Below, one piece after another: positions 947-53,800 of a stretch of 64,000 nucleotides of DNA. The notes below the pieces were generated by a model that was not told the origin of the DNA, ran no database searches, and worked only from the letters and a program-made list of their open reading frames with translations. Source of the DNA: an uncultured Myxococcales bacterium. GTDB taxonomy: Bacteria; Myxococcota; B64-G9. The stretch spans positions 38,567 through 102,566 of the forward strand of contig CAZXHT010000002.1 in assembly GCA_964640665.1 (NCBI GenBank). The letters are read 5' to 3'. The position numbers and the translations under genes are program-made. Within the stretch, counting starts at the first letter, position 1. Each line of letters opens with the position of its first letter.

Positions 947-1174
947 ATGAAAATTATTATGGAAAGCTTGTGGACTTCCATGTCAATAACCAGTGAATTA
1001 CTCGAAATCGGTGTTTTCCGACATTTTACGAACAGTCTTTCAAGAGACTTATGTCTTTATTTTCCCTTTACTATGGGTTATGTTACACGTAATTCACACG
1101 TTTCACAGGCCTTACTATGACTACTGTTTCTTTAATTAATTAATACCTGTAAAACAATAATGAGGAGACTTTAA

Positions 1175-2290: not shown

Positions 2291-2299
2291 GCCTGACTG

Positions 2300-3400: not shown

Positions 3401-3403
3401 ATA

Positions 3404-5101: not shown

Positions 5102-6261
5102 GCTGAGCGGAAAACTTTCTCTCCTGCAACATAGCTTTCCAGAACACGTAGATCGGATGGATCGAGAACAATCAGGTCGGCGTGCTTGCCGACGGCGATA
5201 CTGCCAAGCCGTTCGGAGATGCCCAGAACGCTGGCCGGTACGAGCGAGGCGCAACGAACGGCGGTAGGGATGTCGAGGTGGCAGAGATCGACGGCGTTCC
5301 TGACTGCGTCGGCCATTGTCAAGACACTCCCTGCGAGCAGGCCGCTCGCAGTCCGTGCTACGCCTGCGACCAGAGAGATTGGTGTGTCGCCCATGGAGCA
5401 GTTGTCTTCGGAGCAACCAAGAAGCGATGTTGCCGATGTGACGAGAGCGACGCGATCGGCACCAAGGGCACGGAAGGCCAACTTTGCGGCGCTGGGATGG
5501 ACATGAGAATCGCACAGGACGATCTCCGCGACGGCTTCGTCCGAAGTAAGAACAGCGCCCGCGGCGTTGGGATCGCGGTGGTGAAATGGCTTCATGCCGT
5601 TGAAGAGGTGGGTAACCAGTCGGCAACCGCGCCGTATTGCGTGTTCGGCCTGCTCGCAGGTTGAACTCGTGTGGCCGATAGCGGGTACTATACCCGCCCT
5701 GGAAAGCCAATCGACGAGGGAATCTGAACCGGGCAACTCCGGTGCGATGGTTACAATCCTCAACCAACCGGCCGCGGCGTTTGCGAAATCGGCGAGCAGG
5801 CCAAGATCGGGCTCGCGCAGAAAGTCGATGCCGTGGACACCGCAGCGGGACGGACTGATAAATGGTCCAATGAGGTAGGAGCCAAGCAGGCGGGTAGATC
5901 CATCGCCGGAAGAGGCAAGCGAGGAGATTGACGACAGGCAGCGCTTTGTTGTTTCGGGATCCGCAGGATAAAGAGCCAGGCACATGGACGTGGTGCCGTA
6001 AGCGGCATGAGTCTTCAGAATGGTATCGAGGCTTCCTGTCTCGGCAATGGTAGAGTCGACACCGCCGCCGCCATGGACGTGAAGATCGACGTATCCGGGC
6101 GCCAGCAGGAAACCACCCAGATCAATATCCTTGGAATTATGAGCGGGCATGCCGGAAGTCTCACCGATCCAGGCTATGACGCCGTTACGCACATCTACCG
6201 CACCGTCCCGAAGGATCTCGCGCTCGAGCACGACGGAACAATGTGTAAAGACGCAATCCAA
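5095..6261 (-). CDS. nagA: N-acetylglucosamine-6-phosphate deacetylase-like amidohydrolase
   Basis: PGYVDLHVHGGGGVD metal-binding motif and THLFNGM motif as in NagA; 388 aa. Confidence 0.75.
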   Translation of the reverse strand: MDCVFTHCSVVLEREILRDGAVDVRNGVIAWIGETSGMPAHNSKDIDLGGFLLAPGYVDLHVHGGGGVDSTIAETGSLDTILKTHAAYGTTSMCLALYPADPETTKRCLSSISSLASSGDGSTRLLGSYLIGPFISPSRCGVHGIDFLREPDLGLLADFANAAAGWLRIVTIAPELPGSDSLVDWLSRAGIVPAIGHTSSTCEQAEHAIRRGCRLVTHLFNGMKPFHHRDPNAAGAVLTSDEAVAEIVLCDSHVHPSAAKLAFRALGADRVALVTSATSLLGCSEDNCSMGDTPISLVAGVARTASGLLAGSVLTMADAVRNAVDLCHLDIPTAVRCASLVPASVLGISERLGSIAVGKHADLIVLDPSDLRVLESYVAGEKVFRSAY

Positions 6262-6441
6262 GAAAACCTCCGCAAGGCGGTGTTAGAGTTCTTGAAAAAA
6301 CGATGGAAGATTGTCGTACATCAAGGGCGGGGCTGTCAACAGGTACAAAAAACGTCCAGCGAGAAAAACAATAACAAAACAAGCGGTTATGGGAAATGGA
6401 GTCAATGGATTTTACTTTACTGGCATTAGCAATCGTGCTAA

Positions 6442-8940
<2,499 letters not shown>

Positions 8941-8950
8941 CGGCAGAACC

Positions 8951-9949
8951 ATGAAAAGAACAATTTTTCGCTCGGTCGGGGGATATGTTCCGGACAAGGT
9001 GGTGACCAACGACGATCTGTCTAGCATTATGGAGACAAGCGACGAATGGATAGTAGAGCGTACGGGAATCAGGCAAAGACACTGGGTGGAAGAAAGCACC
9101 GGATCGAGCGACTTGGCTGTTCCCGCTTCTTATGAAGCGCTGGAAAGGGCCGGTATAGACGTCGGTGATATCGACTGCATCGTGCTCGCGACCCTCTCTC
9201 CGGACCACACCTTTCCCGGAACGGCCTGTTTTTTACAGCACAAGCTTGGGCTCGGGGGCATCGCCGCGCTGGACGTCAGGAACCAGTGCTCGGGTTTCAT
9301 CTACGGCCTTAGTATCGCTGACGCCTGGGTGCGCTGTGGCCAGTACAAATGCGTCCTGTTGGTTGGAACGGAGGTTCATTCGACCGGCATCGACAAGACC
9401 ACGCGCGGTCGGGATATCGCCTGCCTCTTCGGAGACGGGGCCGGGGCCGTAATTCTCACTCCCACAGACGATCAGAAAAGGGGTATCCTGTCCACACATC
9501 TGCACGCCGACGGAAAGTACGCCCGCTCGCTGTGGATCGAGGCGCCGGGATCATGCTTTTATCCGTTGCGCATCAACGAGCAAATGCTGGAGGAAGGGCG
9601 GCACTTTCCAAAGATGAAGGGTCGGCACGTATTCACCCATGCAATCAAGCGCATGCCGGAAGTCATAGGCGAGGCCTTATCAGAAAACGGTTTCAAACCG
9701 AGTGACGTCGACCTGTTCGTTCCACATCAGGCAAATCAGAGGATTACCGAAGCAGTAGCAAAGGTAATGGGTTTCGGATCAGAGCAGGTGTACTCGAATA
9801 TCGAGAGATACGGAAACACAACCGCCGCCAGCATACCGCTGTGTCTCAAGGATGCCGAGAGAGAGGGTCGCCTGAAGAAGGGAGACCTGCTCCTGCTGGC
9901 ATCTTTCGGAGCGGGTTTCACCTGGGCCAGCGCCCTTGTCAAATGGTAA
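8951..9949 (+). CDS. fabH: 3-oxoacyl-ACP synthase III (KAS III)
   Basis: 332 aa; active-site Cys context NQCSGF, HQANQRI and GNTTAASIPL motifs. Confidence 0.9.
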   Translation: MKRTIFRSVGGYVPDKVVTNDDLSSIMETSDEWIVERTGIRQRHWVEESTGSSDLAVPASYEALERAGIDVGDIDCIVLATLSPDHTFPGTACFLQHKLGLGGIAALDVRNQCSGFIYGLSIADAWVRCGQYKCVLLVGTEVHSTGIDKTTRGRDIACLFGDGAGAVILTPTDDQKRGILSTHLHADGKYARSLWIEAPGSCFYPLRINEQMLEEGRHFPKMKGRHVFTHAIKRMPEVIGEALSENGFKPSDVDLFVPHQANQRITEAVAKVMGFGSEQVYSNIERYGNTTAASIPLCLKDAEREGRLKKGDLLLLASFGAGFTWASALVKW

Positions 9950-22413: not shown

Positions 22414-24606
22414 TTAGACAGGCTTCACGTACCTCGCGAGCACCGTTTTCGGCCCCACGTCTTCGAAATCGATAAGCAGCTTCAGCCCCAGGCGCGAGTG
22501 GCCGACATCACGCACGAGGCCGCGCCCGAAGATGGAATGTTGCACTCCCAAGCCGATCCATTCATCCAGAATCTGACGCGGGCGACCGTTGTCGACGGCA
22601 CTCTGATCGTACTGCGCATCGTAGTCGACGACGATTCCGTCACCGTCGTCGAGACATATTTCGGCATGGTCTGTCATCGTTTTTTCCCGTTGCCTACTTG
22701 TCGACTGCTCGACTAGTTGATCAAGAAATCTGGATGGCGGGTTTTCCTCGCTTCTCCCGAAGATGGTGCGCGATTGGACACAACTCATCTGCAGCATTTT
22801 CCGGGCCCGGGTCATACCCACGTAGCACAGACGGCGTTCTTCTTCTACCCCGCCGCTGACCTGATCCTCCTCCTCCTCGGGCCGTAAGACCCGGTAGTGG
22901 GGCAACAAGCCCTCCTCCAGGCCCACCATGAAAACCATATCGAATTCCAGGCCTTTTGCTGCGTGCAAAGTCATCAGGCTGATTGCTTCACTCCCGGCGT
23001 CAGCCAGATCGACGGCGGTCACCAGGGCCACGTGATCGAGGAAAGACACGAGCGAGCCGTCGCCGCTCATGTCGGAGAAATCACGGGCCGCGCCCACCAG
23101 TTCTTCGATGTTTTCCCGGCGTCCAAGAGCCGTCAGGGCATCTTCGTGTTCGAGTGTCTCGAGATAAGCGCTGCGCTCTATGACCAAACCGATGATCTCG
23201 GAAGCAGGCAGATCACGCGCCTCGTCGCGCAACTCGGAGATCAGGTTCTTGAAGCCGAGTACCTTCTCCCGCTTGGACTTGCGCAGGAAATCCATTGGTC
23301 CGGACCCGATCGCATCGAGCAGCGTAAGATTTTTCCGGGTGGCAAAATCCTGCAGCCGTTCGCGAGTCAGCTTGCCGATACCCCGCGCCGGTACGTTGAT
23401 GATCCTCCAGGCGTCCACGTCGCTGAGCGGATTTTGCACCAGGCGCAAATAGGCTACCAGATCGCGGATCTCCCGGCGGTCGAAAAAACGGGTGCCGCCC
23501 ACGATACGGTAAGGAATGCCGTACAGGCGCAGAGCATCTTCCATCGCGCGGCTCTGGGCGTTGACCCGATAAAAAACCGCCACCCGGTTCAGGTTTTGCC
23601 CGTCGGCGTCGGCAGTGTATATCCTGCGAGCCACCTGTTCGGCCTCGGCGTGCTCGTTGTCCAAGAGCTTGACGTCTACCGGGGCCCCGCTTTCTCCCTC
23701 GGTCCACAGTTTCTTGACGTGCCTTCGGCTGTTTGCGGATATTACTTTTGAGGCTGCCTCGAGAATTTCCGGGGTCGAACGGTAGTTTCGTTCGAGCCGG
23801 ATCACCTTGGCAGTCGGATAATCCCGCTTGAATCCCAGGATGTGCCCGACATCGGCGTCCCGCCACATGTAGATCGATTGGTCGTCATCGCCCACGACGC
23901 ACAGGTTGGCATCCGCCTTGCACACAAGCCGCAACAAGCCATACTGCGCGCGGTCGGTATCTTGAAACTCGTCCACCAGCACGTATCGAAAGCGTTCACG
24001 GTAGTCGCGCAAGACCTCGGGCTGCTCGGCAAAAAGCCGGTGGGTCTGAAAGATGAGATCGGCGAAGTCGAAGGCATTGGTCGCCTGCAGCCGATCCTGA
24101 TAACGGGCGTAGAAATTTCTCTCGAGGCGGTCGGGCAGGTCGCTCTGGCCGGGACCCTTCAGGCGATGTTTAGCGGACTCGATCTTTCTGAGCAATCTCT
24201 CGGCGCGCCGTCGCTCGGGGTCGAGCCGCAACTCCCGCAGTACGTCGATGCCCAGGCGGCGCGAGTCGTCCTCGTCGTAAATAACGAAATCGCGGCTACG
24301 ACCAATCAGATCGGCGTGCCGCCTGAGGATTCGCGCACCCAGGGAATGAAAAGTCGATATCCACACACCAGCGTTGCGGCCGGAAAGCCCCTCGACGCGT
24401 TCACGCATCTCTCCGGCGGCCTTGTTGGTGAAGGTGACGGCCAGAATGCGGTGTGGCGCAACGTCCCGCTTCCCGATCAGATGGGCGATACGGTAGGTGA
24501 TCGCCCTGGTCTTACCGCTTCCCGCACCGGCCAGGATCAGAAGCGGACCATCACCGTGCAGCACGGCCGCTTTTTGCTCGGGGTTCAGGTCACGGTCGAG
24601 ATCCAT
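22414..24606 (-). CDS. uvrD: ATP-dependent DNA helicase UvrD/PcrA/Rep family
   Basis: 730 aa; GAGSGKTR Walker A, helicase motifs I-VI of SF1 UvrD family. Confidence 0.9.
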   Translation of the reverse strand: MDLDRDLNPEQKAAVLHGDGPLLILAGAGSGKTRAITYRIAHLIGKRDVAPHRILAVTFTNKAAGEMRERVEGLSGRNAGVWISTFHSLGARILRRHADLIGRSRDFVIYDEDDSRRLGIDVLRELRLDPERRRAERLLRKIESAKHRLKGPGQSDLPDRLERNFYARYQDRLQATNAFDFADLIFQTHRLFAEQPEVLRDYRERFRYVLVDEFQDTDRAQYGLLRLVCKADANLCVVGDDDQSIYMWRDADVGHILGFKRDYPTAKVIRLERNYRSTPEILEAASKVISANSRRHVKKLWTEGESGAPVDVKLLDNEHAEAEQVARRIYTADADGQNLNRVAVFYRVNAQSRAMEDALRLYGIPYRIVGGTRFFDRREIRDLVAYLRLVQNPLSDVDAWRIINVPARGIGKLTRERLQDFATRKNLTLLDAIGSGPMDFLRKSKREKVLGFKNLISELRDEARDLPASEIIGLVIERSAYLETLEHEDALTALGRRENIEELVGAARDFSDMSGDGSLVSFLDHVALVTAVDLADAGSEAISLMTLHAAKGLEFDMVFMVGLEEGLLPHYRVLRPEEEEDQVSGGVEEERRLCYVGMTRARKMLQMSCVQSRTIFGRSEENPPSRFLDQLVEQSTSRQREKTMTDHAEICLDDGDGIVVDYDAQYDQSAVDNGRPRQILDEWIGLGVQHSIFGRGLVRDVGHSRLGLKLLIDFEDVGPKTVLARYVKPV

Positions 24607-24647: not shown

Positions 24648-27290
24648 TCACGGTTGGTCCGGGCCCTGCCGCTTGACCCATGTATCCAGCATTGCCCCGG
24701 TGGTCGCTTTTTGGCGGCCCTCTTCAACAGCCTTTATTCTCTTGCGCATTTCGTCGGGCCTGAAGCGGGCGGCCATGAGTTCTGTGTAGATTCTCTCGGC
24801 GTCGTCCCAGTCGCCCATGCGTTCGTCCATGCGGGCGACTTTGAGCAAATATCCGGGCCGTCCGGGAACCATGCGGATCGCCATGCGGTAGAACCCCCGT
24901 GCCTCGTACAACATCCCCTTGGCTTCGTTGATACGGCCCAGCAAAAACTGCAGCCGGGCCTGGTTCTCGTCGTTTGACGGGGCGTATGTTTGCAGCCGGC
25001 CGGCGATTCCTTCCGCCTCGTCGAAACGCTCCTCGGACAACAGCAATTCCACCAGGTTGTAGGCTAGCAGCGAGGACTCAGGCACCTGTTCGAGCCCGTT
25101 CCTCCAAACCTTTTCCGCGCGCTGCGGATCTCCCTGTTTCTTGTACACCCGGCCCTCGATAAAGTATGCCCGATCATGAAGCGGGTTGAGCTCCAGTTCC
25201 CGGCGAGCCAATCCGGCGGCCTCTTCATAGCGCCCGCCGGCGAAGGCTAGATCCGCCAGCAGGTCCATTGCCGCGATGAGTGACGAATCTTTGTCTAGTG
25301 CCAGCTGGGACGCCTTTGCCGCGGCGGCGTTTTTTCCCAAAGCGCGCAGGTTGCGCGCAACTCTCAAGTAAGATTCGCCATCGGTCGGTGTAGCCTGGAT
25401 TACCTTGTCACTGTCTCCCGTCAGCCGGAGCACCTCGGTTGTCGTGGCCGTCAGAATGCGCGGGTCCCAGTGTGCGGCCAGGCGATACTCGGTCAGGGCC
25501 TGTTCGCCGAACCCGGCCATGAATAGAGCCCGGCCCAGCAGACGATGGATGACGGCCGAGGTCGGATTGAGGTACATCGCCCGCGACAGCCAGTGCGCCG
25601 CTCGTCCGAGATCGCGGCCGGGGCCTTTTTCCAGGTAGGCCTTGCCGGTGACCAGGGGGGCCAGGAAATCGGACGGGTGATAACGCAGCATCTCACAGGC
25701 CGCCTGTCCCAGCGTTCCCGGGCCGCAGGGCTCTTCGGCCGGGGCATCCCCGGCCTCGAGCAGGTCGGCGCTCCGCGCGGAGATCCCGTGAAAAGCGGCG
25801 TAAGGAACGGCAATAGCCGCGATGATTAGCGAGGCAACAGCCAGCAGTTGAGCCGCCCGGCCGGGAAGCCGCAGGCGCAACTCGCCCTTTCGTGGCTTTC
25901 CGGCATGCGAGAATGGGGCCGCCGACAGAATTCCCAGCACCACGACGAAAGGCAGCGCCACCCCGCCGACCTCGAGGTTGAAATCAACGAGATTCTGCAC
26001 CGCGACCGTAAAGACCCCGGCCAGGCAACCCGCCATGGTGAGAGATTTCCTCGTCCGAGACAGAAACAGGAAAAAGGACAGCGCGAACATGCCGGCGAAG
26101 AGCAGGCCGAAAAGCGGGCCCCATTCGACCATGACCTGCAATAATTGGTTCTCTGCGTGGGTGAAGGTATTTTCGTAAGACACCGTCTTGTAGTGTGGGT
26201 AGATTGTCTCGTAAGCGCCCTTGCCGACACCCAGCACCGGGTAGTCGGCCATCATCGGCAAGGTTCCGGCCCATGAGCGGATTTTGACTTCCTCCTCGAC
26301 GGCACTCAGGTCACCCAGTGTCTGGAGCTCCTTGACGATGGTGTCGTAGGCCAGGTAGCCGGCCAGGAGAAGCACGCCCACCATGGCCGCCTGCACCGCC
26401 GTCGTATGCCTAAGACGCCGCGCCCGGCGGGTGGCAGCGATGAAAAATAAAAGGATCATGCCCGCCGAGAAAGCCACTATGCCACCCCGGCTGAGGCTCA
26501 TGAAGACAGCTACTCCCGTGATTATCCCCATGAAGCCGTATAGCGCCCGATCGTTACGCTCGCGGGCCGACAAGGAGATGCCCAGCGTCACCGGGGCGCA
26601 CAACCCCAAAAAGCCGGCCAGGTGATTGGAATTGACGAAGGTCGAGAAGAAAAAAGAGCCCGCCGGGATCGGATAAACTCCCCAGATTGCCTTGGCCACG
26701 AACAGCTTGGAGAAAAACCCCACCAGCGCGACAGCGAAGCCGCTCCAGGCGACCGCTTTCAACAGCCGTCGGGCGCGGTGGCGATCATTGAAATAATTGA
26801 CCACCACCACGAAAACCAGGGCATAGGCCAGGTAACGCACTAATTCTCCCGCACTGGCCGGGGAATCGAGACTGAGCGAGTGGAGTCCTCCCGATCCCCA
26901 GAGACCCGTGCCGTCGAGGACGAAGTCATAAAGCTCTGCCGCCCCGGGATTCAACAGCCGCACGAGAAAGGCAGGCAGCGGCACGAACTGCAGCAGTGTC
27001 ACGAAGAAGGCGGCGAGCAAGGCCAGGCCCATGGGAAACAGAAGAAAAGACCTCTGGTTACGTCGTCTGCGCAGGGAAAGGGCTGCGAAAGCTACCAGGC
27101 ACAGCCCCAACATGATGGCAGAAGACCATAGGTGCGCCGTGCCGATGGCCATGGGGGTGAAAAACAGGAGCACGAACACCGGCAGTTCAACGATCCAGCT
27201 CGATCGGTGAGGCGCGTGAGGCCGGTCGGCCCGATCTTCCAAGCTAGCCGATTCCGACTCGAGGTTTTTCGTGCGCCGCTTGTAGGGCAT
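24648..27290 (-). CDS. O-antigen ligase (Wzy_C)-like polytopic membrane protein fused to C-terminal TPR repeats
   Basis: About 12 TM helices with Wzy_C-like core, then ~350 aa of TPR repeats; start refined to ATG at 27290 with GGAGAG RBS (ORF track extends to 27362). Confidence 0.7.
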   Translation of the reverse strand: MPYKRRTKNLESESASLEDRADRPHAPHRSSWIVELPVFVLLFFTPMAIGTAHLWSSAIMLGLCLVAFAALSLRRRRNQRSFLLFPMGLALLAAFFVTLLQFVPLPAFLVRLLNPGAAELYDFVLDGTGLWGSGGLHSLSLDSPASAGELVRYLAYALVFVVVVNYFNDRHRARRLLKAVAWSGFAVALVGFFSKLFVAKAIWGVYPIPAGSFFFSTFVNSNHLAGFLGLCAPVTLGISLSARERNDRALYGFMGIITGVAVFMSLSRGGIVAFSAGMILLFFIAATRRARRLRHTTAVQAAMVGVLLLAGYLAYDTIVKELQTLGDLSAVEEEVKIRSWAGTLPMMADYPVLGVGKGAYETIYPHYKTVSYENTFTHAENQLLQVMVEWGPLFGLLFAGMFALSFFLFLSRTRKSLTMAGCLAGVFTVAVQNLVDFNLEVGGVALPFVVVLGILSAAPFSHAGKPRKGELRLRLPGRAAQLLAVASLIIAAIAVPYAAFHGISARSADLLEAGDAPAEEPCGPGTLGQAACEMLRYHPSDFLAPLVTGKAYLEKGPGRDLGRAAHWLSRAMYLNPTSAVIHRLLGRALFMAGFGEQALTEYRLAAHWDPRILTATTTEVLRLTGDSDKVIQATPTDGESYLRVARNLRALGKNAAAAKASQLALDKDSSLIAAMDLLADLAFAGGRYEEAAGLARRELELNPLHDRAYFIEGRVYKKQGDPQRAEKVWRNGLEQVPESSLLAYNLVELLLSEERFDEAEGIAGRLQTYAPSNDENQARLQFLLGRINEAKGMLYEARGFYRMAIRMVPGRPGYLLKVARMDERMGDWDDAERIYTELMAARFRPDEMRKRIKAVEEGRQKATTGAMLDTWVKRQGPDQP

Positions 27291-27346
27291 TGTCTCTCCA
27301 GGAAGGTTGACATAGCAGGAAAAGAGGAGATTTGCACGGATTTTTC

Positions 27347-27375
27347 TTGTATCCAATTTCAACGAAAAATAGTAT
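27347..27375 (+). promoter_or_regulatory. Putative promoter for Cys-rich lipoprotein (TTGTAT - 17 nt - TAGTAT)
   Basis: AT-rich divergent intergenic region; hexamers with 17-nt spacer ~60 nt upstream of ATG 27434. Confidence 0.35.
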
Positions 27376-27433
27376 TCTGTAAACTGTAGGAAAAATTGTT
27401 ATAACTTATCGCCCTTTTCTTCCCGGGGGAGAT

Positions 27434-28939
27434 GTGATGAAAAAAGTCTCTTTTTTGTTTGTAGCCTGCATGCTGGCCGTAGGGTGTGGTGGAACTGATG
27501 GAGGAGGCGCATGCACAAACACGATACCCTGCCCGGAAGGATTCGCCTGCGACGCCTCCGGCGCCTGTGTAGAGGCAGCACCGTTTATCGTGGCCACAGA
27601 AGAACTCGACGCGGCCACAGTGGGTGTTGCCTATCAGTTTACCGTCACTGCCAGCGGGGGTATTCCTGCTTATTCGTCCTGGGCGATCGAAACAACACAG
27701 GTATGGCTGACTATCGATCCCGATTCAGGCACCCTCGGCGGAACGCCGGATAAGTCTTCGTTCGGCACCGAGGTCACGGTTTCCGTCCGCGACTCTTCCT
27801 TTGGCGATGGAGCGAGCGCCTCGAAAAGCTTTCTGCTCAAGGTGACCGACTGTGAACAAGAAGGCCAACAGACCAGTTGCTACCGTGACGAGGGCGGCAT
27901 TTGCAAGATCGGTGTCCAGACCTGTCACGAGAAAACATGGACCGGCTGCACGGACCTGGATGTGTCAACAAGCGCTCAACATTGCGGCCCGGGATGTGCA
28001 ACCTGCGATCCCGTAAAGGCCGATCGCTGCAACGGCGTGTGCGCCTGCGGAACCGAGCTTCCCTGTACGGAATCCGATTCTTGTTGTACGGGCGCGTGTG
28101 TCAATACGCTGAGCAGTAACGTCAACTGCGGATCTTGCGGGCAGGATTGCAATTTGCTCATCCAAAACGCGGCCGGCTCCCATTGCGACGCGGGTAAGTG
28201 CGATTTCACGTCTTGCCTGTCGGGATTTCTCGATTGCAACGCTGATCGTAGCGATGGTTGCGAGACGGCCATCGACAGCGCTCATTGTGGTACCTGCGAG
28301 AGGGATTGTACGAGCAATGTGCAAAACGCCGATGGTGTGATCTGCGATTCCGGCGGTGGTAGCGGTTACCACTGCGAGTATTCCGCCTGCAGCGAGCCCT
28401 ATGGAGATTGCGACGGCAACCGCCAGAACGGCTGCGAGATCGATCTGTCCGATCCGCTGCACTGCGGAGCATGCAACTCGAACTGCCCGGCCGGCGGCAA
28501 CAACACGGCCTGCGTCTATATCGACGGGGTCGGCTTCAGCTGCGGTTGCCTGGCGGCCGGCGATTGCGAATCCGATCCCGCCCAGCAATGCTGCGACAAC
28601 CGCTGCTACGAGTTTGCAGATGTCGCCCACTGTGGCAATTGCATAACCGACTGTACAAACAGTCCCATCGGTCCCATATGCGCTGACCCGGACAATGCCT
28701 CCTGCGGCTGTTTTTATCGCACGGATTGCGGTGGCCATGATCTTTGTTGCAATCACGTCTGCACGCCGGTCGATGATTTCCACTGCGGCGACTGCGCTAT
28801 CGTCTGCGAAGCCGTCTACGGCGGCCCGCTCTGCGATATAGACAGTGAGTCCTGCTACTGCACGGACAATACCGAATGTGCGGGTTATGGCTCCGAGAGT
28901 TGTGTAGGCTCGGGCACGGCGGCACGCTGTGCAGACTAG
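27434..28939 (+). CDS. Secreted Cys-rich repeat lipoprotein with N-terminal He_PIG/Ig-like domain
   Basis: Lipobox LAVGCGG; cadherin-like putative Ig domain (VGVAYQFTVTASGGIPAYSSW...LTIDPDSGTLGGTP); >6 tandem repeats of DC(N/D)x5GCEx6HCGxCxxxC; about 60 Cys. Confidence 0.7.
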   Translation: MMKKVSFLFVACMLAVGCGGTDGGGACTNTIPCPEGFACDASGACVEAAPFIVATEELDAATVGVAYQFTVTASGGIPAYSSWAIETTQVWLTIDPDSGTLGGTPDKSSFGTEVTVSVRDSSFGDGASASKSFLLKVTDCEQEGQQTSCYRDEGGICKIGVQTCHEKTWTGCTDLDVSTSAQHCGPGCATCDPVKADRCNGVCACGTELPCTESDSCCTGACVNTLSSNVNCGSCGQDCNLLIQNAAGSHCDAGKCDFTSCLSGFLDCNADRSDGCETAIDSAHCGTCERDCTSNVQNADGVICDSGGGSGYHCEYSACSEPYGDCDGNRQNGCEIDLSDPLHCGACNSNCPAGGNNTACVYIDGVGFSCGCLAAGDCESDPAQQCCDNRCYEFADVAHCGNCITDCTNSPIGPICADPDNASCGCFYRTDCGGHDLCCNHVCTPVDDFHCGDCAIVCEAVYGGPLCDIDSESCYCTDNTECAGYGSESCVGSGTAARCAD

Positions 28940-29295
28940 CGCATCGTGATGACGCTGAGGATCTTGCTATTGTTTGCGTTGATCTTGATGGTGTAGTCAC
29001 ATCCCCGGACATCGCCCTGATCTTTTTCGAAGACCACGGTGTAAACGTTGTCACAGAAGGAAACGGACATGTTACGGTTCTCGTAGGTCATGCCCTTGTC
29101 GCGAAGCGCGAGTTCCGCAAGGTAGATGGCGATGGAGGTCGAGTAAATAGGCTCGCCGCTGGTGGCGGCAGCGACCCTGGTTTGCGTTTCCGGCGTTACA
29201 TGGACCTTACTATCGCCGGCGGCACAACCGGCGGTCAAACCCGCCAGCCCAAGCGCAAACAAAAGGCAAGAAATTTTCTTTCCCCGATTTTCCAT
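28936..29295 (-). CDS. Hypothetical lipoprotein
   Basis: Signal peptide LGLAGLTAGCAAG lipobox, 119 aa. Confidence 0.45.
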   Translation of the reverse strand: MENRGKKISCLLFALGLAGLTAGCAAGDSKVHVTPETQTRVAAATSGEPIYSTSIAIYLAELALRDKGMTYENRNMSVSFCDNVYTVVFEKDQGDVRGCDYTIKINANNSKILSVITMR

Positions 29296-33288: not shown

Positions 33289-33379
33289 GCCGAGAAAGCT
33301 AGCATTAATCAGCCGCGGGTTCCAACAGCGAGTTAAGGAGTTGTTGAGAAGTTACACTGAAACAGACTAACATTGAGCC

Positions 33380-35836
33380 ATGTCGGGGAAAATACACGTC
33401 ATCGTTCACGGTCACTTCTACCAGCCGCCCAGGGAAAATCCCTGGAGCGGGAGAATCGAGCGCCAGCCGTCGGCCGCGCCATTCCATGACTGGAACGAGC
33501 GCGTCACCAAAGAATGTTACGCACCCAACACGCACAGCCGGATCCAGGACAATCGGGGCCGCTTGGTCGAGGTGGTCAACAACTTCGAGCACATCAGTTT
33601 CAACTTCGGCCCGACGTTGCTGTCCTACCTGGAGAGCGAGCACCCGGATACCTATCGGCGCATCATCCAGGCGGACGAGATCAGCGCGAACGCTCGCGGA
33701 TACGGCAACGCCATGGCCCAGTGTTACAACCACATGATCATGCCCCTGGCGTCGGCACGGGACCGCTGGACCCAGATCCAGTGGGGGCTTGCCGATTTCC
33801 GGACTCGCTTCAGGCGCGAGCCGTCCGGCATGTGGTTGCCGGAGACGGCCGTCAACGAGGAGACCCTGTGCGACCTGGTGCGGGCGGGGATCGAGTTCAT
33901 CCTGCTTTCTCCGTCCCAGGTCGAGGCCTACCGCCGGCTGGACGGCGGATCCTGGCGGGACGGCCCCCCGCCGACCGATCGCCCCTATCTTTGTCGCACT
34001 CCGGCCGGGGATATCGACATCTTGTTCTACCATGCCGGCCTGAGTTCGGCCGTGGCCTTCGAACACCTGCTGCGCAACGCCGCCATCTTCGCAGATCGTA
34101 TCGCCGGGGCGGCGCGGGAAAGCGATCTCGAAGGAGACCGGTTGGTCTTCGTCTGCTCGGACGGCGAGAGTTACGGACATCACGAGAAACTCGGGGACAT
34201 GTGTCTGGCCTACCTGGCCACGCAGGAATTGCCGGCCAGGAACATGCTGATGACGAGTCCCCGGTGCTATCTCGCCGGGCACCGGCCGGCGTTCGAGGTC
34301 CGCCTCAAGCCGGGGCGGGACGGCCAGGGCACCGCCTGGAGCTGTGCCCACGGGGTTGACCGCTGGCAGGCTGACTGTGGTTGTTCGGACGGCGGCCGGC
34401 CCGGGTGGAACCAGGCCTGGCGCGGGCCACTCAGGCGTGCCTTCGATGAACTGCGGGACGAGATCGATCCCCTTTTCGAACGCCGGGGACTTGCCTATCT
34501 GAACGATCCATGGGCGGCCAGGGATGACTACATCAAGGTTGTTCTGGGAAAACCCCTCGGGTCTGCCCAGGCATTCTTCACCGAGCACCTGTGTGCCGAT
34601 GCGCCCGGCGATGCACATACGGCCGTCTTTCGCCTGATGGAAATGCAGCGCCACGCCATGTTGATGTACACGTCTTGCGGCTGGTTCTTTGCCGACTTGG
34701 CCGGGCTGGAAGCGGTGCAGAACATGCGCTACGCCGCGCGAGCGGCCGAACTGGGCAAGCTCATTGCGGGAACGGCACAGGACTCCGAAATGCGCCGCTG
34801 GCTGGAAGAGGCCGGAAGCAACCTTCCCGAGGAGGACAGCGGCCTTTCCATTCTGAATCGCAGGGTGCTACCCGAGGCCCTGCCGCCCGCTAAAGCTGCT
34901 GCACAATACGCCGTGCTCTCGATGCTGCGTGCCGGAGAGGAGAATGACCGTTCGTGCGGATACAGGATCGAGGTACACGAAAGAAAAATTGCCGCGCGCA
35001 GCGGGTTCGAGGCCGGCGTTTACAAACTCACCGTGGTGGCCGAAAGAACACACGAGGGAGGCACATTCGGCGCGGTGGTGCTGGTCGGCAGCGGCTTGCG
35101 CCTGGCGGCCTTCATCGGCCGGGCAAGGCCCGAGGCAAATCCGCAAGACCCGGAACGGATCCTTTCCGAGTTGGAGCGTGAAGGTTTCGATCAGGCTTGC
35201 AGGAACCTTACGGAAAAAACCGGGCACTACTTCGGGTTGGGTGATCTGTCACCGCAAACCCGCGAACTCGTGGTGGGGGCGCTGCTTGACCCGTTGCTTG
35301 CCGAGCTTGGTCGTACCTATGAAGAAGTTTTCACGGGCAACGAGTGGCTGGTCGACGCGCTCGTGCCCCTGGGAATAGCCCTGCCGGCGCCCTTGCGCCC
35401 GGCGATAGGCTGGGCCGGCTCGGCGCGCTTCAACGCGCTGGTCGAGCGATCGCTGGACGACGCCAACCTGGAGCGGGCGGCCGAGTTGGCGGCAAGGCTT
35501 TCGGTCCTGAACGTTCCGCTCGACATGCAGTCCGCGACCAGACGCGTGTCGCACAGATTGATGGAGCTTCTCGAAGACATCCTGGTCGATCCGCGAGCGG
35601 AGCGAGTTAGCGCGTTCATGGGCTTGCTACGTGACGGCAGGCGAATCGGTCTGGACATCGATGAGGCGACCCTGCAGGTCAGGCTGGGTCTCGCGCTGGG
35701 CGGACTGGTCTCCGGATTGCTCGATCCGCGCAAGCCGGGTGGTGCGGCGCCGGATACGGCCCGGGCAATAGTCGAACTGGCAGATTTACTCAGGCTGGAA
35801 ACGCAAGGGGCAAGGCTGATGATGGATGGTGACTGA
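33380..35836 (+). CDS. Glycoside hydrolase family 57-like protein with C-terminal DUF3536-type domain
   Basis: N-terminal HVIVHGHFYQPPRENPW signature of GH57; 818 aa. Confidence 0.8.
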   Translation: MSGKIHVIVHGHFYQPPRENPWSGRIERQPSAAPFHDWNERVTKECYAPNTHSRIQDNRGRLVEVVNNFEHISFNFGPTLLSYLESEHPDTYRRIIQADEISANARGYGNAMAQCYNHMIMPLASARDRWTQIQWGLADFRTRFRREPSGMWLPETAVNEETLCDLVRAGIEFILLSPSQVEAYRRLDGGSWRDGPPPTDRPYLCRTPAGDIDILFYHAGLSSAVAFEHLLRNAAIFADRIAGAARESDLEGDRLVFVCSDGESYGHHEKLGDMCLAYLATQELPARNMLMTSPRCYLAGHRPAFEVRLKPGRDGQGTAWSCAHGVDRWQADCGCSDGGRPGWNQAWRGPLRRAFDELRDEIDPLFERRGLAYLNDPWAARDDYIKVVLGKPLGSAQAFFTEHLCADAPGDAHTAVFRLMEMQRHAMLMYTSCGWFFADLAGLEAVQNMRYAARAAELGKLIAGTAQDSEMRRWLEEAGSNLPEEDSGLSILNRRVLPEALPPAKAAAQYAVLSMLRAGEENDRSCGYRIEVHERKIAARSGFEAGVYKLTVVAERTHEGGTFGAVVLVGSGLRLAAFIGRARPEANPQDPERILSELEREGFDQACRNLTEKTGHYFGLGDLSPQTRELVVGALLDPLLAELGRTYEEVFTGNEWLVDALVPLGIALPAPLRPAIGWAGSARFNALVERSLDDANLERAAELAARLSVLNVPLDMQSATRRVSHRLMELLEDILVDPRAERVSAFMGLLRDGRRIGLDIDEATLQVRLGLALGGLVSGLLDPRKPGGAAPDTARAIVELADLLRLETQGARLMMDGD

Positions 35837-47670: not shown

Positions 47671-47818
47671 GTTTCCTCCTTCGTAAGAGACACCATCATG
47701 TAGCCCAAAGAGCCGATCATTGCAAGAGCGGGAGCCGTCCAAAATTTTCCAAGCGAAAATCACGCTTGGCCTAAATCTTTTCTTTTTAACCCCGCCGATT
47801 GGTGATAAGCTCTCGGAC

Positions 47819-50800
47819 ATGCTGCGAGGATGTGGGTGTTTACATCCGGTCCGATGGACCGGTTGCAGAACGTTACTGTTCTTGCACCTGGTGTCTTGCG
47901 CGAATCCGGTCTTGGCCGGGACGCGGGAGGCGGGGCCGCTTATCGATTTGCCCGGCAAATTGACTTCGGCGGCCATGGAGATCATCGACGGAGAACTCGA
48001 AGAACTTGGCAAGGATCCCGACTGGGATGCCCTGCACGCCTTCCTGGCCTCGCAGCCCGCTTCGCCCGTGGCCCGGTACGCGCGGGCCTCCGCTGATTTG
48101 AAACGCTGCGCCGTTTGGGACGGGGAACGCGGCCTCGAGACGCTCGCGGCCTTGCGCAAGGAAGCCGCCCAGCGGGGTGATCGGGTGCTGGCCGCACGGC
48201 TGCTTCTGGCCATCGGCCGCGGGCAACTCGCCCTGCGACACAACGCCCGGGCGCTGTCCTCCCTCGAGACCGCGGCAGCCGAGCTGCGCAGGTTGGGAGA
48301 TTCCCGGGGGCTGGTAGAGGCGCTTTTCCAACTCAGCAGCGGTCTGATCAACAATTCCCGCCGGCCGCGGGACGCCTTGAAATACATCAACGAGTTGCAG
48401 GTGCGGGCCGCGCGCCTCGACATGCGCGATTATGAACAGTTAGCCGCGCGTCTCTACGATGAATGGCGCAAGGGAATAGACGAAGTTGACGACTACTTCG
48501 GCCGGGCCCGTAACCGCTTGCAGTACTTCCCGCCGGCCCTCGGCATTTCCGAAGACGCGGACCTGGTGGCTTTTACTAACGGTGTGCTGGTCATGAACGG
48601 AGACACCGACGATCAGGTAGTGTCCGCCCGTCCCGAATTCGTGTCCTTCGACGGCCTGTTTACCCGCAAGTTGAAGCTGCCGGGCGACTCGCTGCAAATA
48701 CGCGGATCGCTGGTGGACGATCGCGGCCGGCTGTGGGCCGCAACCAACCGTGGCCTGTACCGCTACGACGGGGAGGGTTTCGTACACCTGTACAATCCCG
48801 CTCTTGCAGACGAGGAGGGCAACGATCTCGCAAGACAGGTAGCACGCGAGCGCGGCCGGATCTCGACTATGGAAGTTGCCTTATCTTCAAATATCGTAAA
48901 CGAGATAAAACAGGGCCCGGATGGTCGTTTCTATCTGGCAACAGCATCCGGGGCGTCTGTTTGTGATCGTGGCTTCAAGAAATTTCAGTATTTCACGCCG
49001 AAAAACGCTCCGCTGCCCGCGTCTGTCGAACGCATCGCCAAGGCTGCGGACGGATCGTTAGTGATTGCCTGGAGAGACGCCTACGCAGTGCGCCTGCCCG
49101 GGGGCGCCTGGAAAAGACGCGCCTTCGAGTTTCCCAAGGCCGCCGGCCGCCCGCACGGTAAGCTTTTTGGTCTTCTGGTCGACTCATCCGGGCACCCCTG
49201 GGTGCACGGTCTGGGGGGCGGACAGGAACTCTCCGGAACACGAGTTGTGCGCTATGTTGATCGACGCTTTTCGGCCATGACCCGCAACGTCAACCACGTG
49301 CTCAAGGCGAGTGATGGCGCCTATTGGTTCGCTTCAACCGATGGTCTCTGTCGCCAATCGGGTGCGCATTGCGACACGCTCAACGCCGGCCGCTGGATGC
49401 CGGCCGAGTGGTCGCTGGATCTGTTCGAGGGGCCGCCAGGAAACGTGTGGGTTTCTGTCTACCAGGGGGGGCTGATTCGCATCATGCCTCCCAACTACCG
49501 GCACTACGGGCTTGCCGAGGGTTTTCGCCAGCCGGTCAACGAAACAATCCGCGAACTTGCGGGTTACCTGTATTTCACAAACGGAGAGGGGTTGACGCGA
49601 CTGGATCCCGCCAGCGGCCGCATAGACAACTTCGCCTCCGAGGCAGAGGGCATACCCTTAGGAGAGCTGAAGATATCGGAGAAGTTGAGTGATGGGCGGC
49701 TGGCCCTGGCCGGTCCGGACATACTGGCGCAAAAGGCGATCGTCCTCTTCGATGGGCGGCATGGCCGCCTGGTGGACGAACACAATGGATTGCCGGCCGA
49801 AAGCCTGATCTCCTTTTGCCAGGACGAGGCCGGCAAGCTCGAGGTCGCCTACGGCACGGGTTTGTGGCAACTCGACCTGCAGACGCTGCGTGCTCGGCCG
49901 GACCCCGACTGGCGAGCGATCGAGGGCATACAGATTGTGGATCTTGCCTGCGCCGCCGACGGATCCGCCTGGGTGTTGACCCCTGATGCCGTCTATCGAC
50001 GGGATAGCAACGGCGTGCGACACATCGATCTCGGGGGTATTGGTTTGCACGGCAAGCCGCGCCAACTGATTGCGTCGGTGCGGGCCGGGGTCTTCGTTTT
50101 CGGACAGCGCCAGATATTGAACCGCCGAAATGACGCCTGGAAACAGATACCGGTCGATGCCGACAAATTCGACTTCCGCGTCCGCGACGTGGTCGAAGAC
50201 GATCGCGGCCTGCTCTACTTCGCCACCGAAAGCGGCGTTTTCGCCTTCAACGGTGAGAACTGGACCCGCCTGAGCGCGCGTGACGGATTGGTTTCCAGGA
50301 CAGCTTTCCAAATGTTGGCGCGCGGGGACGGGTTGTGGATATCCGGAGACGGAGGCGTCACTTGCTGGAACTGGCCTGAACAGCAACCGCCGGAGACGTT
50401 TCTGTTGTTCAGAGGCGATGCTTTCTTCGCCGATCCCGACGGGAGAGCGCTTCGCTTCCGGGCTTCAAACGGAATAGAAAAGGAAGGTTGGGTGCAGCTA
50501 CGCGGGACGGCCGGCCTGTTCGAGCTGCCCGAAAAGCAGGCCGGCTCGTTTTTAACGCCTGCCAGACGAACGGGTCTCCTGTTGACTGATAACGCAGGTG
50601 CAGGCGATTCGACGGCCTCCGGGATGAAGGTAGTAAGGTCGAACAGGCTTGAGTTTTTCGCTTCGGCCGGTGTGCCTTTCATGGACGATACACCCGATGA
50701 GTTCTCGTACCACTACCGGGTCGACGCGGGTGCCTGGTTTCCCGCCCGGGGAAGGAAGATTGTTGTCGGCGACCTGAAAGATGGAGTGCACCGGGTGGAG

Positions 50801-53800
50801 ATCCGCGCCACGGATCCACGCCTGGTTTCGGATCCCACACCGGCTCGATGGTCCTTCATGGTCGAGACGCCGATGTCCCCCTGGCTGCCGGCCGCCTTCG
50901 GTCTTTCGGCCGGCTTGCTTTTGTTCTTTGCGCGCCGACGCTGGATGTGGTTGCTGCAACGCTTGATGCACAGGCACTTCCATCCTCTCGACCCGGCATC
51001 ATTCGCCCCGCAGCGGCCGGCCAGCGGGCCCGATTTCATTGGTCGTGGGGAGCAGTTGGAAACTCTTTTGCGCGTGGCCGCGGATACCGGGGGGGTGGCC
51101 GTGGCATGGGGGGAGAGAGGAACAGGAAAACACTCGTTCATGCTGCGGCTCGCCGCGCAGCTGCGCCAGCGACACGTACATGTCGTCGAGATGGATCTGG
51201 CCGTTACGACTGCCGGCGGCGACGTCGCCAACCTGGTTGGCAGCCTGGGCCGCACCTTGCTGGACGTTTTAGAGTCAGACGGAGTTCGGATCGATTTGGC
51301 GCCGGCCATGGCAGGGGAATCGCTGTTATCCTTGCCGGGCAGCCTTGGCGGGGAGTCACCCGCCAAGGACATGCCGTCTCCACCCGGATCGTCGGCCTCG
51401 GGTGATAATCCGTTTGAGGTATTGAGTCGGACATTGCGGCATCTTGATCAGCAGGCGCCGGGTGAACGAGTGGCCTTCCTGATTGACAATGCCGAGGTGC
51501 TCGGCGTGGCCCTCGATTCGGACGCCGGCTATGGCTCTTACTTGTTTCCCTTTATGCGCTCGCTGGTTCAGGAACGTTCCTGTGTAACCATGGTGCTGGC
51601 CATCGAGGGCCGCTGGTTCAACCTTTCGCGGATTTACAGGCAGCTGTTTGCCTTCGCATCTCCGCTGGCCATCGATCGTCTCTCGCGGGAAGAAAGCAGC
51701 CGCCTGCTTACGGGCAGGCTCAAGAATCAGGCAATCGTATCCGAGCGGGATCTCGGGCGGCTTGTGGATCTGGCCGGCGGACATCCTTTCTTGCTGCAGC
51801 AAATTGGCAAACATCTGGTTGATGAAATGAACCGCCGGCGGACCAACGTGTGCTCGGGCAAGCTCGTCAAGGGGATATCGACCGTCCTGGTCGATGAAGT
51901 CGACAGCCAGCTGCAACGGATGTTTTTCGATCTTTCGCGCGAGGAAAAACTCGTGGTGACGGCCTTGTGCACAGGCGACCGTCGCGCAAGCAAGCTGGAC
52001 ACGATTGCGGCCCGTCTCGCGGAGGCCGGCGGCAAGTTGCTGTACGAGGAAATCCGCCGGGCCGTTTTGTCGCTCGCCAAGGACGGCACGCTCTTGAAAG
52101 ACGAGGATTACTTCTCCCTGCAAGGTGACCTGTATCGCAGCTGGGTGCATGCGCACCACTCTTTAGCCTCTGTGTTGGAGGAGTCGCATGACTACGTGGG
52201 CCACTACCAGCTCGTCGAAAAGCTGGGCTCCGGCGGCATGGGAGTAGTTTACAAGGCACGCAATCTGGTAACCGGTGCCACGGTGGCACTCAAACTGCTG
52301 CGGGCCGAGCTGTCGGAAAAGAAGCGTTCCCGGCGCCGTTTTCTGCGCGAAGCCAGACTGGGAAAGAGCATTCGGCACCCCAATATAGTGCGCATTCTCG
52401 ATTACGGAGAGCAGGCCGGACGACTTTACCTGGCCATGGAGTTCGTGGACGGCAAGACCTTGACCCTCTGGACTCGCAAGGCCGGCGGCCTGTCGGCACA
52501 GACAGTGTTGGAAATAGGCCGCCACCTGTTGTCGGCGCTGGTTGCCGTCCACGAGGTGGGGATCGTGCACCGTGACGTGAAAAGCGACAATGTCATGGTG
52601 ATAAGCGCGAAGGGCAACTCTATAAAGTTGATGGACTTCGGCCTGGCGGTGGGCAAGGACGTCTCTCGCATGACCCGCGCCGGCTCGTTGCTGGGCACCG
52701 TCGCCTACATGTCGCCGGAGCAGGCGAGGGGCAAGGTGGTTGACGCCCGTTCGGATCTCTATTCACTGGGGGTGGTACTGTATGAACTTTGTGCCGGCGC
52801 ACCGCCTTTTGCCGGCCCCGATGCCGCGGTGCTGCATTCTGTGATATACGATCTGCTCCCGCCGCTTGATGAGCGGGTTAAAAATATTCCTGCTGAGCTT
52901 TCGGCCTTCATCGGCAGGCTGCTCGCCAAGAATACCGACCAGCGTCCATCCAGTGCCCGCGAAGCTCTCGAGCAGCTCAACGGTCTAGCCGAACGACTTG
53001 GATCTTCCGGAGAAAACCTGTTCATGGGCGAGGCGGCGGCTGATGGCCGAACCGATCGGGGCACGACAAGTGGCATTACATCCGGGACAGAAGTGACCTC
53101 ACACGCACTGGAAACGCTCAAGTCACAGAGCATCTTGTTGTCTTCGCTGTCGACGGCCACAAAGGAATCTATCTCCTCGCTGGCGGACGCCACCCACGAT
53201 GCCGCCCGGCTGTTGCTATATCGCATCTCGGCCGATGTGGCTCGTGGCTCGATCGAAGGCGGCGTCTTGAGAGATTGCCTCGAACAGGTTTGCGACACGC
53301 TCGAGGCGAACCGCGGCCTGGTGGCCCTGGGGAGCGATGATGGAAAGTTCGAATGTGTAGCGTCCTTCAACCGTGATGTAGAACAGATTGAGAAGCTTCC
53401 GGTCTTGTTCTCATTGTTTCACCAGTGTGTAGGCAAGCAGAGCGGTCTCCTGTACACGGCCCCGCATGGTTCTGTCGAGGATGGAATGGGCACCGCCGTT
53501 TTCGCACCGCTCTGGGCCGCGGACAAGATCCTTGGCGCTTTCATGGTTGAACGTAGCGGAGCCGAGGCGCGTCCATTCGATTTTCATAGCCTGGAGTTGA
53601 TGGCAGGCGTCGGCTACCTGTTGGGACTCGGACTGGAACGCGAGAGGCTGTACAAACAGGTGCTGAATCAGGAACGCCTGGCCGCGGTGGGACACATGCT
53701 GGCCGGGGTGGCGCATGATATGCGTTCTCCAATGGCTGTCATTTCCGGCTACGCAGAGTTAATTACGTTTGAAAAAGACTCTTCCAATCGGGAGAAGAAC

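Follow-up and report, generated by a model that had tools for sequence, protein, structure and literature searches.

A predicted cysteine-rich lipoprotein with an Ig-like domain and two classes of repeat unit in an uncultured Myxococcales bacterium

In Myxococcus xanthus, the cysteine-rich tandem repeats of TraA have been proposed to act as a rigid stalk for its lectin-like PA14 domain (PMC3325183). Cysteine-rich proteins also act at receptors in eukaryotes: the plant protein STIG1 binds the ectodomains of LePRK1 and LePRK2 (PMC6275014), and fungal CPL1 is secreted and acts on TLR4 (10.1101/2021.09.02.458767). Here we describe a gene for a Cys-rich lipoprotein of 500 residues that lies within a 64,000-nucleotide stretch of DNA (the window) from an uncultured Myxococcales bacterium (assembly GCA_964640665.1, contig CAZXHT010000002.1, positions 38,567 to 102,566). 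The predicted protein carries a lipobox, an Ig-like domain and six Cys-rich units that fall into two classes, which we call type A and type B. It is a distinct orthologue group within the known, large and uncharacterized set of Myxococcota Cys-rich repeat envelope proteins. The reading that we favor, and that we hold to be about evenly balanced, is that of an outer-membrane-anchored, disulfide-stiffened, non-enzymatic binding or spacer lipoprotein.

The list of open reading frames (ORFs) gives an uninterrupted frame of 501 aa that starts at a GTG codon (27434..28939, + strand). Starting instead at the ATG at 27437 yields a 500-aa product, and the database protein P0001, which is 100% identical, is this 500-aa form. 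Based on the spacing of the putative ribosome-binding site (Table 1) and on the length of P0001, the ATG seems the likelier start, and all residue numbers given here refer to the 500-aa form. Cysteines account for 66 residues, or 13% of the protein, in good agreement with the figure of about 60 in the first-pass annotation of this DNA.

That annotation had also raised the possibility that the ORF might be a GC-driven artefact lacking homologues. Six further orthologues of ~500 aa were found in metagenomes and metagenome-assembled genomes (MAGs), with 48-57% identity to the Cys-rich lipoprotein, and both the lipobox Cys and all 64 cysteines after it are invariant in the orthologue alignment. 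A copy with 93% identity is present in a 'Myxococcota bacterium' MAG (L007); the ratio of nonsynonymous to synonymous substitution rates (dN/dS) between the two genes is 0.34, and all 34 substitutions leave the cysteines untouched. Because of these orthologues, the invariant mature cysteines and the dN/dS value, the ORF is a genuine, constrained gene and not such an artefact. If the frame were open by chance, in a GC-rich sequence with Cys codons of low complexity, this would fit the local GC content of 0.55-0.59 and the several long shadow ORFs that overlap the region. One of these, an antisense ORF of 272 aa (27965..28783, - strand), lies entirely within the gene, is rich in Ala, Gly, Val and Ile, and is itself best read as a shadow ORF. 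The chance-frame explanation is already refuted, however, and retains practically no probability: in addition to the evidence above, the orthologues are spread over at least six other metagenome lineages, the Ig-like domain scores above its Pfam cut-off, a ribosome-binding site and a lipobox are present, and the AlphaFold2 (AF2) model of the full protein has a predicted local distance difference test score (pLDDT) of 86. A myxobacterial origin is borne out by the L007 copy and by the wider relatives, which are hypothetical proteins of Myxococcales, Polyangiales and 'Deltaproteobacteria'.

The N-terminus was described in the first-pass annotation as a lipoprotein signal peptide, and it does fit the PROSITE PS51257 lipobox pattern, as do those of the orthologues P0004, P0005 and P0006. 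PS51257 calls for a basic n-region, a hydrophobic h-region and the lipobox [LIVMFWSTAG]2-[LIVMFYSTAGCQ]-[AGS]-C, with the Cys at position 15-35; here the matching segment is MKKVSFLFVACMLAVG-C, ending in Cys17. The lipobox Cys aligns in all orthologues and the C-G-G at this site is kept in 7/7, and a lipobox is also found at the N-terminus of about 60 of 97 relatives. From sequence it is probable that Cys17 is lipidated and that the protein is sorted to the outer membrane: the Gly residues at positions +2 and +3 of the lipobox disfavor retention in the inner membrane, which makes the outer membrane the probable destination.

Beyond the Gly-rich tether and a 4-Cys mini-knot, in which AF2 places a short hairpin (aa 36-46), the protein matches the Pfam family He_PIG over profile positions 5-96 of 96; its score of 26.8 bits exceeds the gathering score of 24. 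The same family is matched in 7/7 orthologues, with a best E-value of 1.7e-7. The AF2 model shows a beta-sandwich across the whole of this region with pLDDT 84-92, and a Foldseek search with it returned Ig-like modules of adhesins, namely a Rib domain (6s5w, E 1.6e-4, TMt 0.62), SraP modules and cadherin EC domains, and also the Bacteroides alpha-galactosidases 4ogz/4nzj (BF4189/BF1418). The He_PIG-type Ig-like domain proposed at first pass is thus well founded. It is followed by a 5-Cys module that AF2 predicts to be a double hairpin, with long hairpins across aa 145-164.

Table 1. Features of the Cys-rich lipoprotein gene and its neighbors, in window coordinates
Feature	Residues	Position	Strand	Remarks
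Shine-Dalgarno-like GGGGGAG		27424..27430	+	ends 6 nt 5' of ATG 27437; read from sequence
Gene for Cys-rich lipoprotein, 500 aa	1-500	27437..28939	+	stop TAG included; ORF list; GTG 27434 as alternative start
Predicted lipoprotein signal peptide and lipobox Cys17, then Gly-rich tether CGGTDGGG	1-16, 17 onward	27437..27487	+	PS51257-type pattern; K2 and K3 in n-region
4-Cys mini-knot Cx5Cx5Cx5C	26-44	27512..27568	+	C26, C32, G35, C38, G42 and C44 invariant in orthologues
He_PIG Ig-like domain	52-137	27590..27847	+	Pfam PF05345
5-Cys beta-hairpin module	139-171	27851..27949	+	C139, C148, C156, C163, W168 and C171 invariant
Unit B1, 10 Cys, Stig1-like CCx3C core at end	183-230	27983..28126	+	B1-B3 z=3.4
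Unit A1, canonical 8-Cys type A with DCNx5GCE	231-283	28127..28285	+	repeat HMM 45.7 bits, E 3.7e-16
Unit A2, type A (8 Cys) with DCDx5GCE	284-342	28286..28462	+	repeat HMM 38.7 bits, E 5.8e-14
Unit B2, 10 Cys	343-398	28463..28630	+	B2-B3 z=4.2
Unit B3, 10 Cys	399-449	28631..28783	+	B3-B4 z=6.6; among best-conserved modules
Unit B4, 9 Cys, C-terminal tip	450-500	28784..28936	+	HCGDCxIxC..YGG invariant; best-conserved module
Wzy_C (O-antigen ligase-like) membrane protein with C-terminal TPRs		24648..27362	-	Pfam Wzy_C 69.7 bits and TPR families; upstream, divergent
uvrD		22414..24606	-	UvrD 288 bits; next after the Wzy_C-TPR gene
Convergent 119-aa lipoprotein, lipobox LTAGC		28936..29295	-	last gene of an acyltransferase-epimerase unit; not part of the system

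The remainder of the protein, aa 183-500, is made up of six units, which begin at aa 183, 231, 284, 343, 399 and 450, each with the motif CGx(1-2)Cx(2-3)C. Tandem repeats had been recognized in the first-pass annotation, although with a period of ~35 aa and the pattern DC[ND]x5GCEx6HCGxCx3C; the six CGxCx3C-led units stand, but their starts are spaced 48-59 aa apart. The exact pattern occurs only once (aa 266), and twice if x6-7 is allowed, and it runs across the boundary between two consecutive units. The shorter motif [HN]CGxCx3C is found five times compared with 0.016 expected in shuffled sequences, far above chance.

The units fall into two classes. When units were aligned pairwise and scored against composition-preserving shuffles, the A1-A2 pair gave z=13.3 and the B1-B3, B2-B3 and B3-B4 pairs gave the lower values listed in Table 1, whereas five of the eight A-versus-B pairs gave z of 0.7 or less and the other three gave 2.1-3.5. 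Pairs across classes thus lie at or near background. An independent hidden Markov model (HMM), built from 428 copies of the ~52-aa, 8-Cys type-A repeat in non-orthologous relatives, matches only A1 and A2 in the Cys-rich lipoprotein. The order of the units is thus B-A-A-B-B-B. Units B1-B3 have the common pattern CGxCx3C-x7-8-C-x3-9-CxC-x5-C-x5-7-CCx3C, which B4 keeps only to the fourth-from-last Cys, and B4 is without the CC pair. A regular-expression search found the Stig1-like core CCx3C-(6-12)-CGxCx3C three times (aa 216-238, 385-406 and 437-457), and an HMM of this core, made from 28 segments of 21 relatives with unrelated architectures, scored 29.6 bits (aa 204-238), 10.5 bits and 13.4 bits at the ends of B1, B2 and B3.

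Counted by module, the cysteines after the lipobox number 4+5+10+8+8+10+10+9 = 64, an even total. Of the two possibilities raised at first pass, a disulfide-knotted or a metal-binding module, the even and invariant Cys counts favor disulfides. Outside the cysteines, pairwise identity among the orthologues is 0.55 for the He_PIG domain, 0.55 for B4 and 0.53 for B3, and 0.36-0.47 elsewhere. Acidic residues predominate strongly in the mature protein (69 D/E against 16 K/R).

The AF2 model of the full protein has a predicted template modeling score (pTM) of only 0.47, and residues 137-500 modeled alone gave pLDDT 81.8 and pTM 0.49. In each unit, a one-turn helix at CGxCx3C is followed by two short hairpins. 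High local and low global confidence is what would be expected of a rod of beads on a string. Searching the Cys-rich model against solved structures with Foldseek gave nothing significant, the best match being the TNFR-type Cys-rich domain of GITR with an E-value of 1.7, and a sequence search of the PDB with the orthologue profile returned only spurious matches to WT1 zinc fingers (E ~0.07-0.17).

Of 245 relatives that we collected, 146 carry type-A repeats in a total of 1603 domain matches. The repeat has the consensus C-G-x-C-G-x2-C-x4-5-N-A-x3-C-x2-G-x-C-x3-4-C-x2-G-[FYW]-x-[DN]-C-[DN]-x4-[ND]-G-C-E, and 94% of 1461 distinct copies retain all 8 cysteines; the losses that occur are single, so that no disulfide pairs could be read from correlated Cys loss in this set. 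In 1357 repeats, E44 (99%), G42 (97%) and the D/N positions (89-96%) are conserved as strongly as the cysteines themselves. This strongly conserved D/N...NGCE loop may allow a bound cation, judging from its sequence. In the same 1357 repeats, positions 13-15 are frequently N (55%), A (54%) and T/S (50%), which makes an N-x-S/T sequon (VQNATG, VLNASG), for example in P0012 and P0146; it could be a structural site or an N-glycosylation site. The corresponding residues of the Cys-rich lipoprotein, aa 243-245 and 297-299, are NAA and NAD, without a sequon, and are NVS, NVT or NST in some orthologues.

The first-pass annotation had suggested a search of MopE, myxococcal Cys-rich repeat and DUF families, and these proved to be the wrong ones. 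Neither PF11617 (Cu-binding_MopE, a 30-aa motif) nor DUF4215 matched the Cys-rich lipoprotein in the Pfam scan at E<=10, and TIGR02232 and TIGR04201 (TraA-type) gave no match in the NCBIfam scan at E<=1; no enzymatic family was detected in either scan. Two repeats from preprints were also compared and set aside. The 'cysteine-rich repeats' of a 2026 preprint on horizontal gene transfer have the spacing Cx6-9Cx5-7Cx8-11Cx7-8CC and are a different repeat, and those of a preprint on diatom trail proteins are DUF4215 repeats. The relevant curated families are NF041328, Stig1 and CPL1-like, and they are reached only through relatives. NF041328 scores 18.8 bits on the Cys-rich lipoprotein (E 0.0012, a weak match that takes in the 5-Cys module) and does not reach its cut-off of 100, whereas it scores 35-115 bits on relatives (P0013 114.6, P0198 92.9, P0018 86.4). 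Neither PF04885 Stig1 (gathering score 24.1) nor PF21671 CPL1-like (27.4) matches the protein at E<=10. Among the seven orthologues only P0004 shows a Stig1 match, at a sub-threshold 19.7 bits. The Stig1 threshold is passed by the bacterial relatives P0020 (43.4 bits), P0040 (40.3) and P0146 (35.2), and the CPL1-like threshold by P0198, which has multiple type-A repeats (83.8 bits), and by P0008 (27.8 bits).

Such matches raise the question of whether the protein might be the precursor of a released ligand or effector in the manner of STIG1 or CPL1, its Cys-rich part being shed to act on a receptor of another cell. The Stig1-like cores, the relatives that pass both models and the receptor partners known for STIG1 and CPL1 would all suit this idea. 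We nevertheless think it highly unlikely, as the Cys-rich lipoprotein itself falls below both cut-offs, its likeness is confined to a short Cys motif, and it has a predicted lipid anchor and no evident conserved processing site.

A different function is suggested by the Cys content. In a metal-binding or metal-sequestering envelope protein, similar to metallothionein or MopE, the cysteines would be mostly reduced, and thiolates with His, or acidic loops, would hold Cu, Zn, Fe or Cd. In line with this, four of the six CGxC motifs have a His directly before them, several Asp residues beside Cys are invariant together with H182 and H449, and some relatives come from metal-rich hydrothermal sediments. 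One repeat-bearing relative, P0187, has MopE motifs as well; PF11617 scores 83.5 bits on it, which demonstrates that the MopE test works. Our protein matches neither this nor any other metal-binding family in the scans. The Cys numbers, even per unit and invariant, are as expected of disulfide pairs, AF2 packs the cysteines into hairpin modules, and the same repeats are abundant in MAGs of Myxococcales, Polyangiales and Polyangiaceae. Cultured Myxococcales and Polyangiales are aerobes, and Stig1 and CPL1 are secreted eukaryotic proteins in which Cys-rich domains are normally disulfide-bonded. On balance, a metal-binding role seems distinctly unlikely.

The orthologue-group profile retrieves 21,703 cluster representatives at E<=1e-3, many of them through the Ig domain, and the stricter E<=1e-30 leaves 1625. 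Giant proteins in which He_PIG or type-A copies recur dozens of times make up the majority, and about a dozen have the whole architecture, including 'long forms' of ~640 aa. The long forms P0124, P0126, P0127, P0141 and P0156 align along the full length of the Cys-rich lipoprotein and add ~140 aa of Cys-rich sequence, at whose end lies the conserved tail ...CC(x3-4)CGxNxxGxC(I/V/L)(F/Y); the protein is therefore the short form of a two-form family. A homologue search with the 53-aa type-A profile yielded nothing but fragments, none longer than 104 aa and almost all without organism names, from which the taxonomic spread could not be read. No paralogue was found within the window.

Based on these results, the favored binding or spacer lipoprotein would work as follows. 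The protein would be exported by Sec, cleaved by signal peptidase II, lipidated at Cys17 and delivered to the outer membrane. Starting at the anchor, it would present the Gly-rich tether, the 4-Cys knot, the He_PIG domain, the 5-Cys hairpin module and then the B-A-A-B-B-B array, in which the 64 invariant cysteines would form ~32 disulfides and so produce a stiff and very acidic rod. The [DN]-C-[DN]-x4-[ND]-G-C-E loops of the type-A units might hold a cation such as Ca2+, perhaps stiffening the rod further. Binding rather than catalysis would be its task. Contact with a ligand would be made by the membrane-proximal Ig domain and by the distal B3-B4 tip; these are the likely ligand surfaces because they are the best conserved parts outside the cysteines. 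The A and B modules would set the reach, and candidate ligands are polysaccharides of the matrix or envelope and proteins on other cells. Relatives place the same repeats between an N-terminal lipobox and C-terminal fibrinogen_C, D8C, Kelch/RCC1 propeller, CBM_3 or Laminin_G_3 domains, and this position between the lipobox and distal domains of binding type shows use of the repeats as a spacer or stalk in those proteins.

Several points weigh against this reading. The Ig domain is membrane-proximal in the Cys-rich lipoprotein, and the Cys-rich part is therefore no stalk for it. The idea of a binding tip was drawn from conservation, and both a surface-exposed and a periplasm-facing orientation are possible. 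Close relatives come from MAGs of Guaymas hydrothermal sediment, and as this sediment is possibly anoxic, extensive disulfides are less certain. There is no experiment on any member of the family, and our search for literature on MXAN_6577 found none. Finally, the genomic context is not conserved: with no operon shared across the orthologous loci, it offers no firm functional partner and no clue to the ligand.

The window is otherwise an ordinary piece of chromosome with gyrB, gyrA, a Mur ligase gene and uvrD, in which the Cys-rich gene stands alone on the + strand. The first-pass annotation named a divergent operon of Wzy-TPR (tetratricopeptide repeat) and uvrD genes and a small convergent lipoprotein gene as its neighbors. 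Both are in place, the former confirmed by its family matches (Table 1), but neither is a conserved partner across the orthologues. The divergent Wzy_C-TPR and uvrD genes are found again at L007 and at L006, the locus of an orthologue with 48% identity, and are absent from L003, L004, L008 and L009. The convergent 119-aa lipoprotein gene is a neighbor in no genomes but those of the window, L001/L002 and L007, which are near-identical. Its stop codon overlaps that of the Cys-rich gene in the palindrome CTAG, and no intrinsic terminator was found between the two. It is a real gene, with a dN/dS of 0.13 against L007; the Pfam and NCBIfam scans found no family in its product.

It is this neighborhood that makes a periplasm-facing accessory lipoprotein of envelope-polysaccharide assembly worth considering, one tied to Wzy_C-TPR that might, for instance, bind or position a polymer through its He_PIG domain. 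The conservation of the divergent pair at 93% and at 48% identity would agree with such a tie, as would the NAD-epimerase, acyltransferase, polysaccharide deacetylase and glycosyltransferase family 2 (GT2) genes nearby in the window, and the ORFs that lie between and downstream of two paralogues at the L008 locus, described next. The absence of the pair from four other orthologous loci argues against it. Moreover, the contexts of L003 and L004 are unrelated (DNA polymerase III alpha, ABC transporter, PilZ), the Cys-rich gene is served by a promoter region of its own and runs in another orientation than the sugar genes, and nothing ties the A and B repeats to the handling of glycans. We therefore regard this role as unlikely.

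The L008 locus (338-9539), from the 'Deltaproteobacteria' MAG Meg22_46_Bin_104 of Guaymas, contains three paralogous genes for the Cys-rich lipoprotein: a partial copy (338-1702, - strand), a 644-aa long form (1989-3923, + strand) and the 505-aa orthologue (6001-7518, + strand). Reading the translations by eye, a 580-aa ORF between the long form and the orthologue resembles a bifunctional sulfate adenylyltransferase/adenosine 5'-phosphosulfate (APS) kinase, an enzyme of 3'-phosphoadenosine 5'-phosphosulfate (PAPS) synthesis, and ORFs downstream resemble CysQ and the GalE epimerase. The sequence hints at a link to sulfated-polysaccharide metabolism in this one genome.

Three other ORFs of the window were noted in passing. 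An ORF of 2206 aa (47720-54340, + strand) combines Reg_prop beta-propeller repeats, an AAA_16 ATPase region, a Ser/Thr kinase domain (179 bits) and C-terminal HisKA and HATPase_c domains, and is an unusually large hybrid Ser/Thr and histidine kinase. A listed ORF of 939 aa with the bacterial alpha-2-macroglobulin domains A2M and bMG10 (61176-63995, - strand) has both ends inside the window, 5 nt from its right edge; its GTG start is the first start codon past the preceding stop. The third, of 818 aa (33380-35836, + strand), carries Glyco_hydro_57 and DUF3536 and overlaps a 449-aa ORF without a family on the opposite strand (33305..34654); it is likely that only one of the two is real.

For this genome, the work adds one more envelope lipoprotein, which will not surprise specialists. 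Its wider value lies in the fact that type-A repeats are very common, yet function and structure have been determined for none of the members, and the curated Stig1, CPL1-like and MXAN_6577-like models cover the repeats only in part. As the 500-aa orthologue group offers a compact, well-conserved representative that AlphaFold models confidently, it would lend itself to solving a first structure, mapping disulfides and analyzing metals. The group could also be used to ask whether the plant and fungal Stig1 and CPL1 domains have the same fold as the bacterial repeats.

Of the described systems, NF041328 (MXAN_6577-like, Myxococcota) is built from the same ~52-aa, 8-Cys type-A repeat, CGxCGx2C...C..GxC...C..G[FYW]x[DN]C[DN]x4[ND]GCE; the Cys-rich lipoprotein differs from it in having only two type-A units and in adding four type-B units and an Ig domain, none of which the model describes. 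With the Stig1 family (plant STIG1/GRI) it has in common the core CCx3C-x6-12-CGxCx3C, present in three copies, but STIG1 proteins are small soluble plant ligands of pollen receptor kinases and not Ig-domain lipoproteins. The CPL1-like model covers CCx3C...CGxCGx2C...C..GxC, that is, the end of a B-type unit running into the start of an A-type unit, whereas CPL1 itself, an effector of Cryptococcus neoformans, is a small fungal protein. A more speculative proposal, doubtful but conceivable, is that one ancient extracellular module survives in plants as STIG1 ligands and in fungi as the CPL1 effector domain, and that the A and B units are its bacterial versions, which Myxococcota have expanded into rods, stiffened by cations, on thousands of envelope proteins. 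On that view, the compact and highly conserved lipoprotein with He_PIG and B-A-A-B-B-B would serve as a dedicated receptor in recognition or adhesion, and its conserved B3-B4 tip would engage one particular partner, perhaps on kin or prey cells. Calcium-binding disulfide-rich modules such as calcium-binding epidermal growth factor (cbEGF) domains and low-density lipoprotein (LDL) receptor class A domains offer an analogy only, with no significant match in sequence or fold.

By analogy of design, the nearest studied counterpart would be TraA, which comes from the same phylum and likewise joins an envelope anchor to one beta-sandwich recognition domain and tandem Cys-rich repeats. The parts differ, however: TraA has a PA14-like domain, TIGR04201 repeats and a C-terminal MYXO-CTERM, where the Cys-rich lipoprotein has He_PIG, another repeat family and an N-terminal lipobox. 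The polarity also differs, as the Ig domain of the Cys-rich lipoprotein is the membrane-proximal element and its repeats are the distal one.

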